Made by a program: the position numbers and the translations under genes | Part shown: piece after piece, positions 52,442 to 58,126 of the stretch | Numbering within the stretch: position 1 is the first letter of the stretch | Layout: each line of letters opens with the position of its first letter | NCBI GenBank assembly: GCA_038801705.1 | Contig: JAULTC010000001.1 | Location: 169,916 to 233,915 of the forward strand | Source of the DNA: Candidatus Methanosuratincola mesotaenarum | Lineage (GTDB): Archaea; Thermoproteota; Methanomethylicia; Methanomethylicales; Methanomethylicaceae | Direction: 5' to 3' | DNA: 64,000 bases | The notes under the pieces: model-generated | What the model saw: only the letters and a program-made list of their open reading frames with translations | What the model was told of the DNA's origin: nothing | Databases searched by the model: none

Positions 52442-53911
52442 ATGCTCAGGGAGAAGTGCGGAGTGTTTGCTGTCGTCAGCAGTGGGGAGGCGTTCGTCCC
52501 GCTCTACTGGGGGCTGGTTGCGCAGAACCACCGTGGGCACGAGTCATACGGCTTCCTCACGCACTCGGACGGGCTGAAGAGGTACGTCGACCTCGGGCTA
52601 GTCCCCAGGATAGAGAGGGAGGAGCTCATCAGATGGCAGATGCTCCTGCCCGGCAAGAGGGGAATAGCCCACGTGAGGTATGGGACTTCGGGGAAGAGGG
52701 ACGCATACTCTCACCTGAGGGATGCGCAGCCTATGGTTGTGTCGCACGGAAGGTCAAAGATGGGCATCGCGTTCAATGGGAACTTGGTCAACATAGGCTG
52801 GCTGAGGGGTCTGCTGGCTGGAAAGAATGGGAAGATGCATGCCACGTCCGACACTGAGCTACTCTGCAGTTACCTTGCTTCGAAAGCCAGCGTCGGAATT
52901 AGAGATGCCATCGATGCATGCATGAAGGAAGTCGAGGGCGCGTACTCCGTTGTTGGACTGAGATCTAACGGGGAGCTCTTTGCATTCCGCGACCCCCTCG
53001 GGATTAGACCACTCTGCATTGGGAAGAGCAGGGAGGGGGACCTCACCGCAGTCTCATCTGAGACGGTCGGGCTTGACATCAATGCATTGAACTTTATGGG
53101 CGAGGTGGAACCCGGAGAGGCAATACTATTCAGTAGCAACGGAGAGTCCATGGCAAGAGAGAGGCTTGCCAGCTGCCCGAGGCGGGCGCTCTGCGGCTTC
53201 GAGCTCTCCTACTTCAGCAGACCCGACTCCATAATAAACGGCAAGCCGGTCTACAAGACGAGGGAGGAGTTGGGGAGGAATCTGGCGAGGAGGTACCAGG
53301 AGTACGTCCGCAGAGCTGACCTGATAGTGAGCATACCCGAGACTGCTGAGGACGCGGCCTACGGGCTCCATGAGGAGACCGGGATCCGCTGGGAGAGGAT
53401 GCTGAGGAGGCACAGGTTCGTCACCCACAGGGCGTTCATACTCGATTCTGAGGACCGCAAGGTTACAATAGACAGGAAGATAAATGTCGCGGATGGGGGG
53501 CTCGGTGGCAAGAGAGTGATCGTCGTCGAGGACAGCATCGTGAGGGGCGATACGACAAAGACTACGATCGCAAAGCTGAGAGAAAGGGGGGCCAAGGAAA
53601 TATATATGTTCGTGACCTTCCCGCGCATCACCCACCCGTGCTTCTACGGGATAGACATGGCGACATTCAAGGAGCTGATAGGCTTCAGGCATGATGAGGA
53701 GGGGATCGCTAAGGAGATAGGGGCTGACGCGGTCTGCTACCAGCCGCTCGAGTACTTCAACCGCGCTACCGGGATGGACGGGAGGGATCTCTGCATGGCC
53801 TGCGTCACTGGGCAGTACCCCACGGAGCTCGCCCAGACGATCGCGGATCGCGTCAAGTCGAACATCACTACTGAGAGTTGCAGGGTTTATGAGAGGGGTT
53901 TGGAGGCATAG
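52442..53911 (+). CDS. purF: amidophosphoribosyltransferase (with short propeptide before Cys)
   Basis: MLREK-CGVFAV shows the Ntn Cys after a propeptide. PRTase motif VIVVEDSIVRGDT. C-terminal Cys cluster (CFYG...CMAC). Confidence 0.85.
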   Translation: MLREKCGVFAVVSSGEAFVPLYWGLVAQNHRGHESYGFLTHSDGLKRYVDLGLVPRIEREELIRWQMLLPGKRGIAHVRYGTSGKRDAYSHLRDAQPMVVSHGRSKMGIAFNGNLVNIGWLRGLLAGKNGKMHATSDTELLCSYLASKASVGIRDAIDACMKEVEGAYSVVGLRSNGELFAFRDPLGIRPLCIGKSREGDLTAVSSETVGLDINALNFMGEVEPGEAILFSSNGESMARERLASCPRRALCGFELSYFSRPDSIINGKPVYKTREELGRNLARRYQEYVRRADLIVSIPETAEDAAYGLHEETGIRWERMLRRHRFVTHRAFILDSEDRKVTIDRKINVADGGLGGKRVIVVEDSIVRGDTTKTTIAKLRERGAKEIYMFVTFPRITHPCFYGIDMATFKELIGFRHDEEGIAKEIGADAVCYQPLEYFNRATGMDGRDLCMACVTGQYPTELAQTIADRVKSNITTESCRVYERGLEA

Positions 53912-53913
53912 AA

Positions 53914-55227
53914 TTGGCAGGGATTTTGGGGATATACCTTTTTGACAAGAGATGGAATGCATACAACTTTGGGGTCTTCGGGCTCATGGCACTACAGCAC
54001 AGGGGGCAGGAGACCGCGGGGATGGAGATCCTAAACGAGAGCAGCCAGAAGATCACTGGAAAGGGGCTCGTCGAGCAGGTCTTCAGCTCGGTCAGCGGGA
54101 AGGGAAACATCCTGATAGGGGGGGTCTCGCCGTACCCAGCTGAGGAGGTGGAGATACTTCCCATCACGGTCTCGGAAAAGACGTCGGCTGTGGTCGACGG
54201 CAAGATCACATCGGTAGACGGGTACAGATGGGACCCGGGAGTTAGCTACGAAGGAAACCTTAGGCGCGCATTCAGCGCGCTGGAGCAGGGGAGAAGCGAC
54301 CTTGATTCCATGAAGGACTTCTTCAGTCGCTGCCGTGGGGGGTTCTCCTACGTTGCCGCAAACGAAGACAGGGAGGTCCTCGCAGGGAGGGGGGCACTGG
54401 GAATAAAGCCCCTCGTCCTAGGCAAGATGGGTTTTGACGGTGGGATCGTCGCATCGGAGAGCTGCGTGATGGACATCATCGGCGAGAGGGTTCCGATCAG
54501 CCCAGCAGAGAACATCGAGCCGGGGCATGCGATGGTCTTCACGCCGATGTCAGCCCGCTTAGAGATGATCCAGAATAGCCCATGCAGGTCCTACTGCTCA
54601 TTCGAGTATGTCTACCTCGCCAGGCCTGACTCGTACATCAACGACATCCCAGTCTATGGGGTGAGGAGGGAGATAGGGAGGAGGCTAGCTCAGGATGGGG
54701 CGGTCGACGCAGATGTAGTGATAGGCGTGCCCGAGACTGCAATACCCTTCGCCATGGCATACTCAAACGAGACCGGGATCCCGGTGGAGAAGGGCTTCGA
54801 ACTAACAGGTAGAAGGGTGAGGAGTGCTATGAAGCCGAACCAAGTCGAGAGGCTGAAAGGGGTCCAGCTGAAGCTGAACGTGATCAGCGAGGCGGTGAGG
54901 GGGAAACGCGTTGTGCTCATCGACGACAGCGTCGTCCGAGGAAACACGCTCGCCAACATCGTCTATTTGATGAAGGAGAAGGGGGCGAAGGAGATCCATG
55001 TGAGGATAGGAAGTCCCCACATCATATCCCACTGCCCGTTCGGCGTCGAGGTACCGGGAGAGGATGAGCTGATCGGCAAGCACCTCAGCGAGGAGAAGAT
55101 AGCAGAGGTCATAGGGGCGGACTCTTTCAGATACCTGAGCCTCGGCGACCTCATAGAGGCGACGGGGATGAGTAGAGGAAAACTCTGCACGGGTTGCTTC
55201 AATGGCGAATATCCGGAGGTGGTATGA
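53914..55227 (+). CDS. PurF-like paralog lacking the N-terminal nucleophile cysteine
   Basis: Begins MAGILGIY, with Gly where PurF has Cys1. Retains the PRTase motif VVLIDDSVVRGNT and C-terminal Cys residues (CPFG...CTGC). Confidence 0.75.
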   Translation: MAGILGIYLFDKRWNAYNFGVFGLMALQHRGQETAGMEILNESSQKITGKGLVEQVFSSVSGKGNILIGGVSPYPAEEVEILPITVSEKTSAVVDGKITSVDGYRWDPGVSYEGNLRRAFSALEQGRSDLDSMKDFFSRCRGGFSYVAANEDREVLAGRGALGIKPLVLGKMGFDGGIVASESCVMDIIGERVPISPAENIEPGHAMVFTPMSARLEMIQNSPCRSYCSFEYVYLARPDSYINDIPVYGVRREIGRRLAQDGAVDADVVIGVPETAIPFAMAYSNETGIPVEKGFELTGRRVRSAMKPNQVERLKGVQLKLNVISEAVRGKRVVLIDDSVVRGNTLANIVYLMKEKGAKEIHVRIGSPHIISHCPFGVEVPGEDELIGKHLSEEKIAEVIGADSFRYLSLGDLIEATGMSRGKLCTGCFNGEYPEVV

Positions 55228-56712
55228 ATGAAGATCCTTCTGGTTGGCGGAGGCGGCAGGGAGCACGCGATCGCGAGGGCGCTGGCGAAGAGCGCCCACT
55301 GCCCTAGGGTATACTGTATCTCGGAGCTGATCAATCCTGGCATCAGGAAGGTCGTCTCTTCAGGCGGAGGGGAGTATTTCAGGGGGAACACGAACGACCC
55401 ATCCGCGGTGGTTGAGGCTGCCTCAAAGTGTAGCCCGGACTTTGTCTTCGTCGGTCCAGAGGAGCCGAACTTCCACGGCATCCCAGACGAGCTCGAGGCT
55501 GCGGGGATACCATGCATAGGAGCGAACAGGGAGGTCGCTGAGCTGGAGCTCTCCAAGGCAAGCATGAGGGACCTTCAGTGGAAGTACAAGATACCAGGGA
55601 GGCTCTGGTACAAGAAGTTCAAGACCTTCGAGGAGGCAGCCCCCTACATTGAGGAGTATGCTGAGAGCATCGCGCTGAAGCCGGCGAGGCAGGCAGGAGG
55701 GAAGGGGGTGAAGGTCATCGAGGATTTTCAGGTCTACCTCCAGGACGACAAAAGAAAGGTGAAGAGGGAACATGCGGAGTCGATAGTCAACGAATACATG
55801 AAGGGCTACGACGACATTGAGTACAAGCTCCTGATAGAGGAGAGGGTCTGGGGTCCGGAGTATACGGTGCAATGCTTTACCGACGGGAAGACCGTTGTCC
55901 CGATGCCCGCTGTTCAGGACAACAAGCATGCGTTCGACGGAGACCTCGGCCCAGAGACGGGCGGGATGGGGTCGATCTCATGCTGCATGAACTTGAAGTA
56001 CGGGGTCGAGGATGAAAGGTCGGTGATCACGGAGGAGGAGTACAGGCGCTCTGTGGAGATAGTCAAGATGATGATCGATGCTATACAGAGGGAGACAGGG
56101 AAGCGGTACCACGGGATATCGGCAGGGCAGATGATGCTGACGTCTGTCTGGGGGCCGACCGTGATAGAAATATACTCGAGGCTCGGCGACCCTGAGGCTG
56201 CGAACGTGCTAACAATGCTGAAGACCGACCTCGTCGACATCTGCGAGGCCATAATCTGCGAAGACCTGAATACGGTCAGGGTCGAGTTCGAGGATCAGGC
56301 GGTGGTGGTTAAGGCGGTATGCCCGGAGGGCTACCCTGACCGCAGGGACCTAGCGAAGGGGCATCCAGTAGCAGTCTCACCATCCGCAGACGCTGAAAGG
56401 ATCCTCTGGGCCTCCGCAGAGGATGCGGGGGATGGCGTGGTCACAGGGGGGTCGAGGGTGGTCGAATGTATAGGCACAGGGGACACACTCCCAGAGGCGA
56501 GTTCGAAAGCCGAAGATCTCTGCAGGAGCGTAGGGCTCACCGACGGGTGGAAGCTCTTCCACCGGAGCGATATCGGGACCGAGAAGTCAGTGCTCCGGAG
56601 GATCCAGCTCGGAAATATGGCAAGGGAGATATACCAGTACAGGGAGCGTAGAGGACTCCTCGGCAAGAGGATGATCTGGATACCCGGGAAGGGATTGATG
56701 GAGGTAGGGTAA
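55228..56712 (+). CDS. purD: phosphoribosylamine-glycine ligase (elongated, 494 aa)
   Basis: MKILLVGGGGREHAIA N-terminus and ATP-grasp core. About 60-70 aa longer than typical PurD. Confidence 0.85.
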   Translation: MKILLVGGGGREHAIARALAKSAHCPRVYCISELINPGIRKVVSSGGGEYFRGNTNDPSAVVEAASKCSPDFVFVGPEEPNFHGIPDELEAAGIPCIGANREVAELELSKASMRDLQWKYKIPGRLWYKKFKTFEEAAPYIEEYAESIALKPARQAGGKGVKVIEDFQVYLQDDKRKVKREHAESIVNEYMKGYDDIEYKLLIEERVWGPEYTVQCFTDGKTVVPMPAVQDNKHAFDGDLGPETGGMGSISCCMNLKYGVEDERSVITEEEYRRSVEIVKMMIDAIQRETGKRYHGISAGQMMLTSVWGPTVIEIYSRLGDPEAANVLTMLKTDLVDICEAIICEDLNTVRVEFEDQAVVVKAVCPEGYPDRRDLAKGHPVAVSPSADAERILWASAEDAGDGVVTGGSRVVECIGTGDTLPEASSKAEDLCRSVGLTDGWKLFHRSDIGTEKSVLRRIQLGNMAREIYQYRERRGLLGKRMIWIPGKGLMEVG

Positions 56713-56755: not shown

Positions 56756-58126
56756 ATGGTTTTCAAAATGAGCGAAAAGGAAAGAGCATACCTGATTAAA
56801 GAGATAGATTCCCTCAGGAAAGAGATCGAGGGGAGGCTCGTGCCCTTGGAGAGGATCTCACCAGGGATCCCGGCAACATTCATCTCTGTTGGCGGTGGCG
56901 AGCTTGGAGACCTGGCAACCACGGCAGCGGGGAGGCGGTTTGGCGGGGCAAGGGGCGGGATCGTCTCTGTTGCCTTCGACAAGTACCACGGCTTCCCGGC
57001 ACAGGACGCCGCAGACTATTCAGAGGTCTTCGACATGATGGATGGGGACCAGCTAGAGGGGAAGATAAAAAAGTACGTCCCTGATCCGCGCGCCCCGCAT
57101 GCGATATACCTTGAGGTGGAGCGGATCGACACCAAGAGGGCATACAAGCTCGGGATGGAAGAGGGATACAGGGTCATGTCCACCCCCTATGGGCCGCTCG
57201 TCTGCATGGACAGGCACGCGACGAAGCTGATGTTCGACAAACTCGGCCTCAACATGGCGCCATGGGCGTACGCGGACTCCGAGGTGGGCGTCCAGGAGGC
57301 GGCTGAGAAATTCGGGCTGCCAGTCATAGTCAAGCCAGTGATGACCTCGAGCGGGCACGGCACATCCATAGTCAGGACGGCAAAGGAGCTCAAGGAGAGC
57401 TACAAGCACTCGGTCGAGCATGCGAGGGGTGTTGGCGACGAGGTGATCGTCGAGAAGTACCTCCCGGAGCTCAAGGAAGGGGGAACCGAGATTACGCAGA
57501 TCGTCGTCAGGCACTTCAATACCGAAGGGAAGATCGTGAGCACCTGCCTGCCCCCGATAGAGCACAGGAGACCTGGTGCGACTTACCATGAGAGCTGGCT
57601 TCCCTCGACGATCTCCGAGGCGGCTGCCTCGAAGTGCAGGGAGGGGGCCATGAAGATCGCGGACTTTATGGGCGGCATTGGCATATATGCAGTCGAGCAG
57701 TTCGTGATCGGCGACAAGGTCTACAACAACGAGGTCGCAAACCGCCCGCATGACACCGGTCTGGTCACGAGGTGGATGCTCAATATGGACGAGGGCGCAC
57801 TCCAGCTGGTCTCCACGCTGGGAATGCCCGTCGATCAGTCGATGGTCGAGCTCTCGCGCCACGGTGTCTTTGGAGTCGCGCATGTCGTCCTGGCGCCCGA
57901 GGGCGTGAAGGAGGGGGCTACAGTCCAAGAGTTCAACCTGAAGGGGTTGCACGCAGGGCTCGGGGAAGACCTGAAGGGGGACCTCTGGATCTTCGGGAAG
58001 CCGACGGCGTATCCTGGTAGGAGGATGGGGCTGGCATTCGCATATGCAATCGAGCTTGACAGGGCGAGGGTAGACGCGGAGAGGATGGCGCACCTGGCAG
58101 AGGCACAGTTTGCTTACAAGGAGTGA
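56756..58126 (+). CDS. purT: formate-dependent GAR transformylase (PurT, ATP-grasp)
   Basis: IVKPVMTSSGHG, ESW and NRPHDTGLVT (PurT-specific PHDTG versus PurK HNSGH). Collinear with E. coli PurT from about residue 40 on. N-terminal 30-40 aa may be an over-extension (internal GTG near 56850). Confidence 0.75.
   Translation: MVFKMSEKERAYLIKEIDSLRKEIEGRLVPLERISPGIPATFISVGGGELGDLATTAAGRRFGGARGGIVSVAFDKYHGFPAQDAADYSEVFDMMDGDQLEGKIKKYVPDPRAPHAIYLEVERIDTKRAYKLGMEEGYRVMSTPYGPLVCMDRHATKLMFDKLGLNMAPWAYADSEVGVQEAAEKFGLPVIVKPVMTSSGHGTSIVRTAKELKESYKHSVEHARGVGDEVIVEKYLPELKEGGTEITQIVVRHFNTEGKIVSTCLPPIEHRRPGATYHESWLPSTISEAAASKCREGAMKIADFMGGIGIYAVEQFVIGDKVYNNEVANRPHDTGLVTRWMLNMDEGALQLVSTLGMPVDQSMVELSRHGVFGVAHVVLAPEGVKEGATVQEFNLKGLHAGLGEDLKGDLWIFGKPTAYPGRRMGLAFAYAIELDRARVDAERMAHLAEAQFAYKE

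Follow-up and report, generated by a model that had tools for sequence, protein, structure and literature searches.

A PurF paralog without the catalytic cysteine, encoded between purF and purD in Candidatus Methanosuratincola mesotaenarum, and its possible part in the first step of purine synthesis

What role can be played in an archaeal purine operon by a second PurF-like protein that has lost the catalytic cysteine of its family? The question is raised by a stretch of 64,000 nucleotides from Candidatus Methanosuratincola mesotaenarum (contig JAULTC010000001.1, positions 169,916 to 233,915; hereafter the window), in which only two PurF-like genes are found: purF, whose product bears the cysteine, and a paralog, here called purF′, which lies between purF and purD. 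The reading we favour, in which our confidence and our doubt are about equal, is that PurF′ is a glutaminase-dead protein that is still competent as a phosphoribosyltransferase (PRTase) and makes phosphoribosylamine (PRA) from phosphoribosyl pyrophosphate (PRPP) and external ammonia. PurF′ is, on this view, an ancient paralog of glutamine PRPP amidotransferase in which the glutaminase site was dismantled and the PRTase apparatus and the ligands of a [4Fe-4S] cluster were kept. Its gene appears to be translated jointly with the Cys-bearing purF on its 5' side and with purD on its 3' side. The protein would convert PRPP to PRA, the first step of purine synthesis, with ammonia made elsewhere, which would be either free NH3/NH4+ or NH3 that the partner PurF sets free within an oligomer containing both proteins. 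PurD, the glycinamide ribonucleotide (GAR) synthetase, uses up the PRA that PurF produces.

An earlier note on this DNA had described tandem PurF genes, the second without the nucleophile Cys and placed between purF and purD. This description is borne out by the open reading frame (ORF) of purF′, which starts at a TTG codon and encodes 437 residues beginning with MAGILGIY, by the gaps on either side (2 nucleotides from the end of purF to the TTG, 0 nucleotides from the purF′ stop to the start codon of purD) and by the alignment; the two PurF-like proteins are 31% identical over about 440 residues. The nearest in-frame stop 5' of the TTG is a TGA at 53890-53892, and the seven sense codons that separate them (EGFGGIE) include neither a start codon nor a Cys, so that a Met-Cys N-terminus for PurF′ is impossible; the alternative upstream start, a possibility raised by the earlier note, was thus ruled out.

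The glutaminase site of PurF′ is altered at several positions (residues are numbered as in mature E. coli PurF unless those of PurF′ itself are named, and family counts refer to 106 aligned Cys-less PurF′ orthologs). At the column of the catalytic Cys1, where a Gly had been proposed from the sequence, the alignment instead places Ala2 of PurF′, and it is Gly3 that aligns with the Gly2 conserved among canonical PurFs. Among the orthologs this column holds Ala in 65, Thr in 23, Ser in 11 and Val in 4, with Pro and Gly rare, and more than 100 orthologs have an N-terminus of the form M-[A/T/S/V/P/G]-G-I-L-G. Arg73, a ligand of the glutamine alpha-carboxylate, and Tyr74, a residue of interdomain coupling and of the channel, are both deleted in all 106 Cys-less members as well as in 8 of 8 clade members that retain the Cys. 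The Asn of the oxyanion hole has become Asp, and Asp127 has become Asn in 80 of the 106 orthologs, that of the window included (Table 1). Gly102 and the LQHRGQE loop (Arg26-Gly27) are retained. Judged by the features of EC 2.4.2.14, the window protein thus lacks Cys1 and, with the exception of Gly102, the glutamine-site set. Because Cys1, Arg73, Asn101 and Asp127 are all lost, the N-terminal nucleophile (Ntn) glutaminase chemistry is impossible in PurF′ of the window, which upholds, on broader grounds than the missing Cys, the earlier statement about this half-reaction.

A residual hydrolytic function, in which PurF′ would act as a weak amidohydrolase through an N-terminal Thr or Ser after removal of the initiator Met, is very improbable in view of these replacements. 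Thr or Ser does occupy position 1 in about one third of the orthologs, all of the residues observed there (Ala, Thr, Ser, Val, Pro and Gly) would permit removal of the Met, as a small second residue allows this under the Met-aminopeptidase rule, and six clade members retain Cys1, Asn101 and Asp127. However, the window protein and the 65 orthologs mentioned above have Ala, which is no nucleophile and which excludes this activity for the window protein; the oxyanion Asn and both glutamine-binding residues are lost, and Arg73 is missing even from the members that retain the Cys.

The PRTase half of PurF′ is kept. The PRPP motif DDSVVRGNT (residues 337-345, nucleotides 54922-54948), recognized in the earlier note, is confirmed, with its Asp-Asp, Ser, Arg-Gly and final Thr present in 106 of 106 orthologs. 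Pro302 and Thr304 of the PPi loop, Arg261-Pro-Asp263, Asp366, Asp367, Ser368, Arg371, Gly372 and Thr374 are likewise invariant or nearly so, and Glu303 is kept in 101 of 106; the type I PRTase model PF00156 matches residues 266-363 with 40.8 bits against a cutoff of 26.3. The flexible loop, whose role is limited to catalysis and channel closure, ranks among the most conserved segments of the protein: the equivalents of Arg332, Pro337, Arg342, Lys349 and Asn351 are found in all 106 orthologs and that of Gln339 in 105. Two other loop positions have changed, as Lys326 is Leu in the PurF′ subclade of the window and Phe334 is Ala throughout the clade; with Tyr74 deleted, two channel-lining aromatics of canonical PurF are therefore gone clade-wide.

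The C-terminal cysteines pointed out in the earlier note are also present. The columns of C228, C374, C425 and C428, which ligate the [4Fe-4S] cluster in Bacillus subtilis PurF (1gph/1ao0), are occupied by Cys in every PurF′ and partner sequence and in 14 of the 15 bacterial PurFs, and PurF′ is accordingly classed as a predicted [4Fe-4S] PurF of the B. subtilis type. This same protein is its best match among solved structures (1gph, 1ao0; E 3e-67, 32% identity, template modelling (TM) score 0.83-0.85), and the alignment with 1ao0 covers PurF′ residues 16-435. The two have in common the combination of Ntn and type I PRTase domains, the four cysteine columns, the PRPP motif and the flexible loop, whereas PurF′ has no propeptide, no Cys1 and no Arg73/Tyr74, and differs by Asn101 to Asp, Asp127 to Asn and Phe334 to Ala. 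An AlphaFold2 model built with 36 orthologs is confident (mean predicted local distance difference test (pLDDT) score 86.4, predicted TM score 0.86), and its only weak spots are a lineage-specific insertion at residues 193-196 and the flexible loop at 299-317, the latter as expected for a mobile loop. In comparisons with 1ao0, 1gph and 1ecb the model gave TM scores of 0.83-0.86, with the B. subtilis, E. coli and Arabidopsis PurFs superposed over both domains. Thus, in the model, the Ntn-type fold of the N-domain is retained despite its sub-threshold Pfam score, which is given below.

These data also bear on whether purF′ is a sound gene. The TTG start and the GATase_7 score, which at 20.0 bits is below the cutoff of 25 (PF13537 and PF13522 were tested, and the Pfam scan gave no match to PF13522), might suggest a duplicate in decay or a faulty annotation, be it a misplaced start or a pseudogene. 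We regard this as the least probable explanation of all, since a GGAGG stands 7 nucleotides upstream of the TTG, the in-frame stop is only seven codons away, the frame is unbroken over its full length, the N-termini are conserved in hundreds of orthologs drawn from at least seven lineages of archaea, the N-domain is conserved like that of the active partner and the predicted structure is confident. The GGAGG falls within the 3' end of purF, as would suit translational coupling of the two genes. When mean pairwise identity was compared over 33 genome-matched purF/purF′ pairs, the N-domain reached 0.59 in PurF′ versus 0.56 in the partner PurF, and the PRTase domain 0.79 versus 0.66. Both domains of PurF′ are thus under strong purifying selection, and decay of purF′ was ruled out by this conservation together with its placement in the tree described below.

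PurF′ is not a new kind of system. Brown, Hoopes, White and Sarisky (2011, Biol Direct 6:63; PMC3261824) found two PurF-like proteins, falling into two clusters, in each crenarchaeote that they studied: the first has the N-terminal Cys, and the second, named PurF′ by them, has Ala or Val in its place, and its gene is a neighbour of the Cys-bearing purF in a setting of pur genes. An ammonia-dependent PRPP aminotransferase activity was proposed there for PurF′ as a hypothesis awaiting experiment. The window protein shows all four of the defining features of that family (two-domain length, absence of the N-terminal Cys, a purF neighbour and membership in a separate cluster), and is hence a methanomethylicial addition to it. 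The novelty implied by the earlier note therefore stands only in part: the paralog is genuinely Cys-less, but PurF′ had been named, with the same ammonia hypothesis, in 2011. The Sulfolobales member (P0263) groups with the window protein in 100 of 100 bootstrap replicates and has identical synteny, whereas the 2011 survey did not include Methanomethylicia, to which the host of the window belongs. In the same paper, Mlab_0150 of Methanocorpusculum labreanum is described as a recent, lineage-specific purF duplicate outside the ancient PurF′ cluster.

The tree behind this placement is a distance-based neighbour-joining tree of 121 PurFs with 100 bootstraps, a set outside which the exact loci of the 2011 paper lie. 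The PurF′ clade, which includes the window protein and P0263, was monophyletic in 100 of 100 replicates and split from every bacterial and archaeal Cys-bearing PurF sampled, so that the paralog phylogeny called for by the earlier note yielded a separate clade. Its members come from Sulfolobales, Aigarchaeota, Bathyarchaeia, Hadesarchaea, Brockarchaeota, Nezhaarchaeales and Freyarchaeota, and the sequences extend the family to Brockarchaeota, Bathyarchaeia, Hadesarchaea, Nezhaarchaeales, Aigarchaeota and Freyarchaeota. A search of 1.84 billion cluster representatives with the PurF′ family profile found the PurF′ signature in about 13 clusters at the 50% identity level, with Sulfolobales (P0263), Aigarchaeota (P0247) and one "Thermococci" metagenome-assembled genome (MAG) among the named cluster members. 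The nearest named genomes carrying relatives of purF′ are those of Ca. Methanosuratincola (Methanomethylicia/Verstraetearchaeota), and an identical protein of 437 residues is recorded from a Ca. Methanosuratus MAG.

The gene order is uniform. The arrangement purF–purF′–purD on one strand was observed at all archaeal loci with sufficient flanking sequence (Methanomethylicia, Brockarchaeota and Bathyarchaeia) and again at loci L059-L068, from Freyarchaeota, Thermoprotei, Hadesarchaea, Bathyarchaeia, Sulfolobales, "Thermococci" and Aigarchaeota, with spacers of a few nucleotides or with overlapping genes. Co-occurrence with a canonical PurF, which the earlier note had suggested checking, is thus seen at every such locus.

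Several members of the clade (P0111, P0119, P0095, P0106, P0114 and P0117) keep Cys1, Asn101 and Asp127 and lack Arg73-Tyr74. These Cys-retaining members, P0111 of Freyarchaeota and others, are nested at two places within the PurF′ clade, and their genes, too, are flanked by purF and purD (L059:6001-7344 and L061:6001-7350). Because some members keep Cys1, the hallmark of the clade, as far as the sequences go, is the deletion of Arg73-Tyr74 rather than the loss of the Cys. Loss of glutamine binding or coupling may have come first, to be followed in several lineages by loss of the nucleophile. At two of the loci the database start of the partner purF (L061:4605 and L065:4676) falls 3' of the ESCGV motif, and an upstream extension restores the catalytic Cys; start-site errors of the same kind were noted in 2011 (PMC3261824).

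The depth of the clade and the altered channel could also be read as signs of a new activity, namely a different PRPP-dependent transfer in which a widened pocket accepts a nucleophile other than ammonia and the product is not PRA. The clade stands apart from all other PurFs, two bulky channel residues have disappeared from it throughout (the Arg73-Tyr74 deletion and Phe334 to Ala), and the purF equivalog model TIGR01134, which aligns to residues 18-434, gives PurF′ 267.6 bits, below its cutoff of 350. Nevertheless, this explanation is improbable, as the invariant slot between purF and purD in pur operons from Asgard archaea to Sulfolobales points to step 1 or 2 of purine synthesis, no additional pathway genes accompany purF′, and PurF is the sole family matched. 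In Pfam, NCBIfam and structure comparisons the best matches were to PurF only and to no other family, and the paralog was not identified as a known enzyme of another pathway, an outcome that the earlier note had allowed for.

The glutaminase site of the partner PurF is complete (Cys1, Arg26, Gly27, Arg73, Tyr74, Asn101, Gly102 and Asp127) and it is matched by GATase_6/7, while its score on TIGR01134, 322.9 bits, is also below 350, and the Pfam scan found no PF00156 match in it or in any other protein of its type. It belongs to an "F1-type" clade, recovered in 100 of 100 neighbour-joining replicates, which has a long stem (0.33) and is nested among ordinary archaeal partner PurFs. The traits of this type are Gln28 to His, Asp366 to Glu in most members, Thr373 to Asp in 121 of 121, and a flexible loop that is longer by one residue, with the R-x-F-I motif kept if a one-residue shift is allowed. 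Active PRTases, HGPRT among them, can have a Glu-Asp pair, and residue 373 varies across type I PRTases; in the representative set Asn373, and occasionally Asp or Glu373, was seen in Cys-bearing PurFs. Because other PRTases tolerate such residues, Asp366 to Glu and Thr373 to Asp were not read as loss of the PRTase. Complementary degeneration, with the PRTase of the partner lost, was considered and is unsupported as stated, given tolerated substitutions and a retained R-x-F-I. The partner is, on its sequence, an atypical, fast-evolving and divergent protein that is not demonstrably dead, and the better-conserved PRTase domain in this organism is that of PurF′.

These features can be set against the view that PurF′ is a non-catalytic subunit associated with the Cys-bearing PurF, serving in nucleotide sensing for feedback control, heat stabilisation or docking of PurD, with PurF making all of the PRA. 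Strict co-occurrence and tight coupling between purF and purD at every locus examined would suit such a subunit, as would the conservation of a catalytically dead N-domain and a partner that retains all of its glutaminase residues and the PRPP motif; moreover, canonical PurFs are homo-oligomeric, and their inhibitors bind in the PRTase site and where subunits meet (1ao0/1ecb). On the other hand, it is the PRTase domain of PurF′ that is more conserved than that of the partner, by the identities given above, and its flexible loop is near-invariant, a loop that in canonical PurF becomes ordered only when the enzyme is in its catalytic state with PRPP bound. The drifted PRTase segment in the window lineage is that of the partner, with no PF00156 match, Asp373, the loop insertion and the stem of 0.33. 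We therefore consider a purely non-catalytic PurF′ unlikely, although it is a rival to be taken seriously.

A further possibility, which we likewise judge unlikely, is a division of labour within an obligate PurF/PurF′ hetero-oligomer: the partner would hydrolyse glutamine, ammonia would travel by an inter-subunit or remodelled path to the PRTase domain of PurF′, and PurF′ would carry out most of the PRPP amination and pass the very labile PRA straight to PurD, whose gene is always the next one after purF′. The lineage of the window, in which the partner has a long branch and a drifted PRTase segment, would then represent an advanced state of subfunctionalisation. If true, amidophosphoribosyltransferase would have its first heteromeric example here, and the instability of PRA in largely thermophilic lineages would have found a physical answer.

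Synthesis of PRA by PurF′ with external ammonia, the reading favoured here, has a biochemical precedent in E. coli. According to Mei and Zalkin (1989), as cited in PMC3261824, Cys1 mutants of E. coli PurF lose the glutamine-dependent activity and keep the ammonia-dependent one. Those mutants are single laboratory changes in a protein whose glutamine site and channel are otherwise intact, whereas PurF′ is natural and its whole glutamine site is remodelled; the Fe-S cluster site, present in PurF′, is absent from the E. coli enzyme. Several observations weigh against ammonia-dependent synthesis. PurF′ is always co-transcribed with PurF, and a mere ammonia isozyme would be expected to be independently regulated or sometimes to occur alone. 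With Tyr74 deleted and Phe334 replaced by Ala, the canonical ammonia tunnel cannot be identical in PurF′, and the flexible-loop Lys326 is Leu in the subclade of the window. The conserved PRPP site could equally fit nucleotide binding by a regulatory subunit, because the feedback inhibitors of PurF bind the catalytic site. Mirror-tree comparisons, made to look for co-evolution of PurF, PurF′ and PurD in 17 genomes, gave pairwise r of 0.93-0.95 and partial correlations that were all positive, but phylogeny dominates this signal, which thus speaks neither for nor against a complex; no PurF-PurF′ fusion, and no PurF-PurD fusion, occurred among the top 150 cluster representatives; and no functional work on PurF′ after 2011 was found in a literature coverage that is incomplete, most subscription journals being outside it.

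Strict co-occurrence and coupling thus disfavour a separately deployed isozyme and favour joint action of the two proteins, and hetero-oligomerisation of PurF with PurF′ may be put forward tentatively, at a confidence a little short of even. Direct use of ammonia, a regulatory partnership and another PRPP-dependent reaction, the three roles offered by the earlier note, have all been considered here; sequence data do not discriminate between the first two. Cys-bearing PurF also occurs in nature fused to PurM, PurC, PurQ-like or PurN domains (P0330, P0338, P0281, P0381, P0389, P0288, P0293 and P0299).

The loss of Cys1 is not restricted to the archaeal clade. Cys1-bearing cluster representatives have Asn101 in 120 of 121 cases, and Asp101 is found in 10 of 13 Cys-less representatives outside the PurF′ clade (P0253, P0279, P0309, P0314, P0319, P0342, P0363, P0365, P0375 and P0390). 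The bacterial Cys-less PurFs, from Tissierellia/Bacillota, are polyphyletic, occurring at no fewer than four places in the neighbour-joining tree, and their distribution points to repeated, independent origins in bacteria. Like PurF′, these proteins (P0253, P0314, P0342, P0363, P0365 and others; L041) have lost Cys1, to Ser or Gly, have an intact PRTase site and are encoded in pur operons; unlike in PurF′, Lys326 and Phe334-Ile335 are present in all of them and Tyr74 in many. In a Tissierellaceae MAG (L041:5989-7347, DATCJO010000025.1), a PurF with Ser1 and Asp101, beginning with MSGIIGIY from a TTG that follows AAGGAGG, occupies the purF slot of a complete operon, purC-purL-purE-X-purM-purN-purH-purD, where X is the Cys-less PurF, and no Cys-bearing purF was found within 6 kb of it. 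It is thus the sole PurF in that interval, unlike PurF′ with its Cys-bearing partner. This locus suggests that a Cys-less PurF can be a working enzyme, and the recurrent loss of the Cys along with the change of Asn101 to Asp suggests a selected alternative state of the site. Asp101 could provide a counter-charge for the buried N-terminal amine or form an NH4+ site, which we infer from the sequences.

A more remote relative was seen in Clostridiales/Lachnospiraceae (L044:4393-5817 and L045:8934-10361). It is a Cys-less protein of ~473 residues with an MGGFFG start and 28% identity to PurF′ in the PRTase half, and its ORF belongs to the same pur cluster as a canonical Cys-bearing purF. In L044 it immediately precedes that purF, and in L045 a single ORF lies between the two.

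The features of the window that were used above are collected in Table 1. Downstream of purD, the window contains a purT-like gene followed by purE. The purT-like gene (56756-58126) encodes an ATP-grasp protein that falls below both NCBIfam PurT cutoffs (264 versus 339 bits and 258 versus 502 bits); the PurT models align to it only from about residue 45-66 on, and its N-terminal stretch is unmatched. The product may be a divergent formate-dependent GAR transformylase.

Table 1. Features of the purF–purF′–purD region, in positions of the window
Feature	Position	Strand	Basis or remark
purF, Cys-bearing partner	52442..53911	+	489 residues; MLREK propeptide, then Cys6 (MLREKCGVF)
Shine-Dalgarno-like GGAGG	53902..53906	+	7 nucleotides before the purF′ TTG, within the purF 3' end
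purF′	53914..55227	+	full-length two-domain PurF paralog without the N-terminal nucleophile
Ala2 codon, at the catalytic Cys1 position	53917..53919	+	alignment
Val71-Ser72, site of the two-residue deletion (Arg73-Tyr74 gone)	54124..54129	+	alignment
Asp95-Gly96, replacing the oxyanion-hole pair Asn101-Gly102	54196..54201	+	Asp in 94/106 orthologs
Asn115, replacing Asp127 (ligand of the glutamine alpha-amino group)	54256..54258	+	alignment
Four cysteines: C228 (54595-54597), C374 (55033-55035), C425 (55186-55188), C428 (55195-55197)	54595..55197	+	
PRTase flexible loop FELTGRRVRSAMKPNQVERLKGVQLKLN (residues 295-322)	54796..54879	+	alignment, 106 orthologs
PRPP-binding motif VVLIDDSVVRGNT (residues 333-345)	54910..54948	+	alignment and PF00156
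purD (GAR synthetase)	55228..56712	+	TIGR00877 349 bits, above 288

The presence of PurF′ in Methanomethylicia will be no surprise to a specialist in archaeal purine metabolism. What the results add is a narrower target for experiment, through the Arg73-Tyr74 hallmark, the Cys-retaining intermediates and the bacterial loss of the Cys with Asn101 to Asp. PurF′ is a conserved gene at the first committed step of purine synthesis in a large part of the TACK archaea as well as in certain Asgard and euryarchaeal-grade lineages, and its public names vary among "amidophosphoribosyltransferase", which is the most frequent, "phosphoribosyltransferase family protein" and "hypothetical protein". As the first of these implies a glutamine-dependent activity that PurF′ cannot have, metabolic reconstructions for these uncultured archaea inherit a wrong or redundant assignment. 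The role of PurF′ bears on the nitrogen economy of these organisms, since one ATP would be saved per purine if glutamine were bypassed, and on the handling of PRA in lineages that are largely thermophilic.

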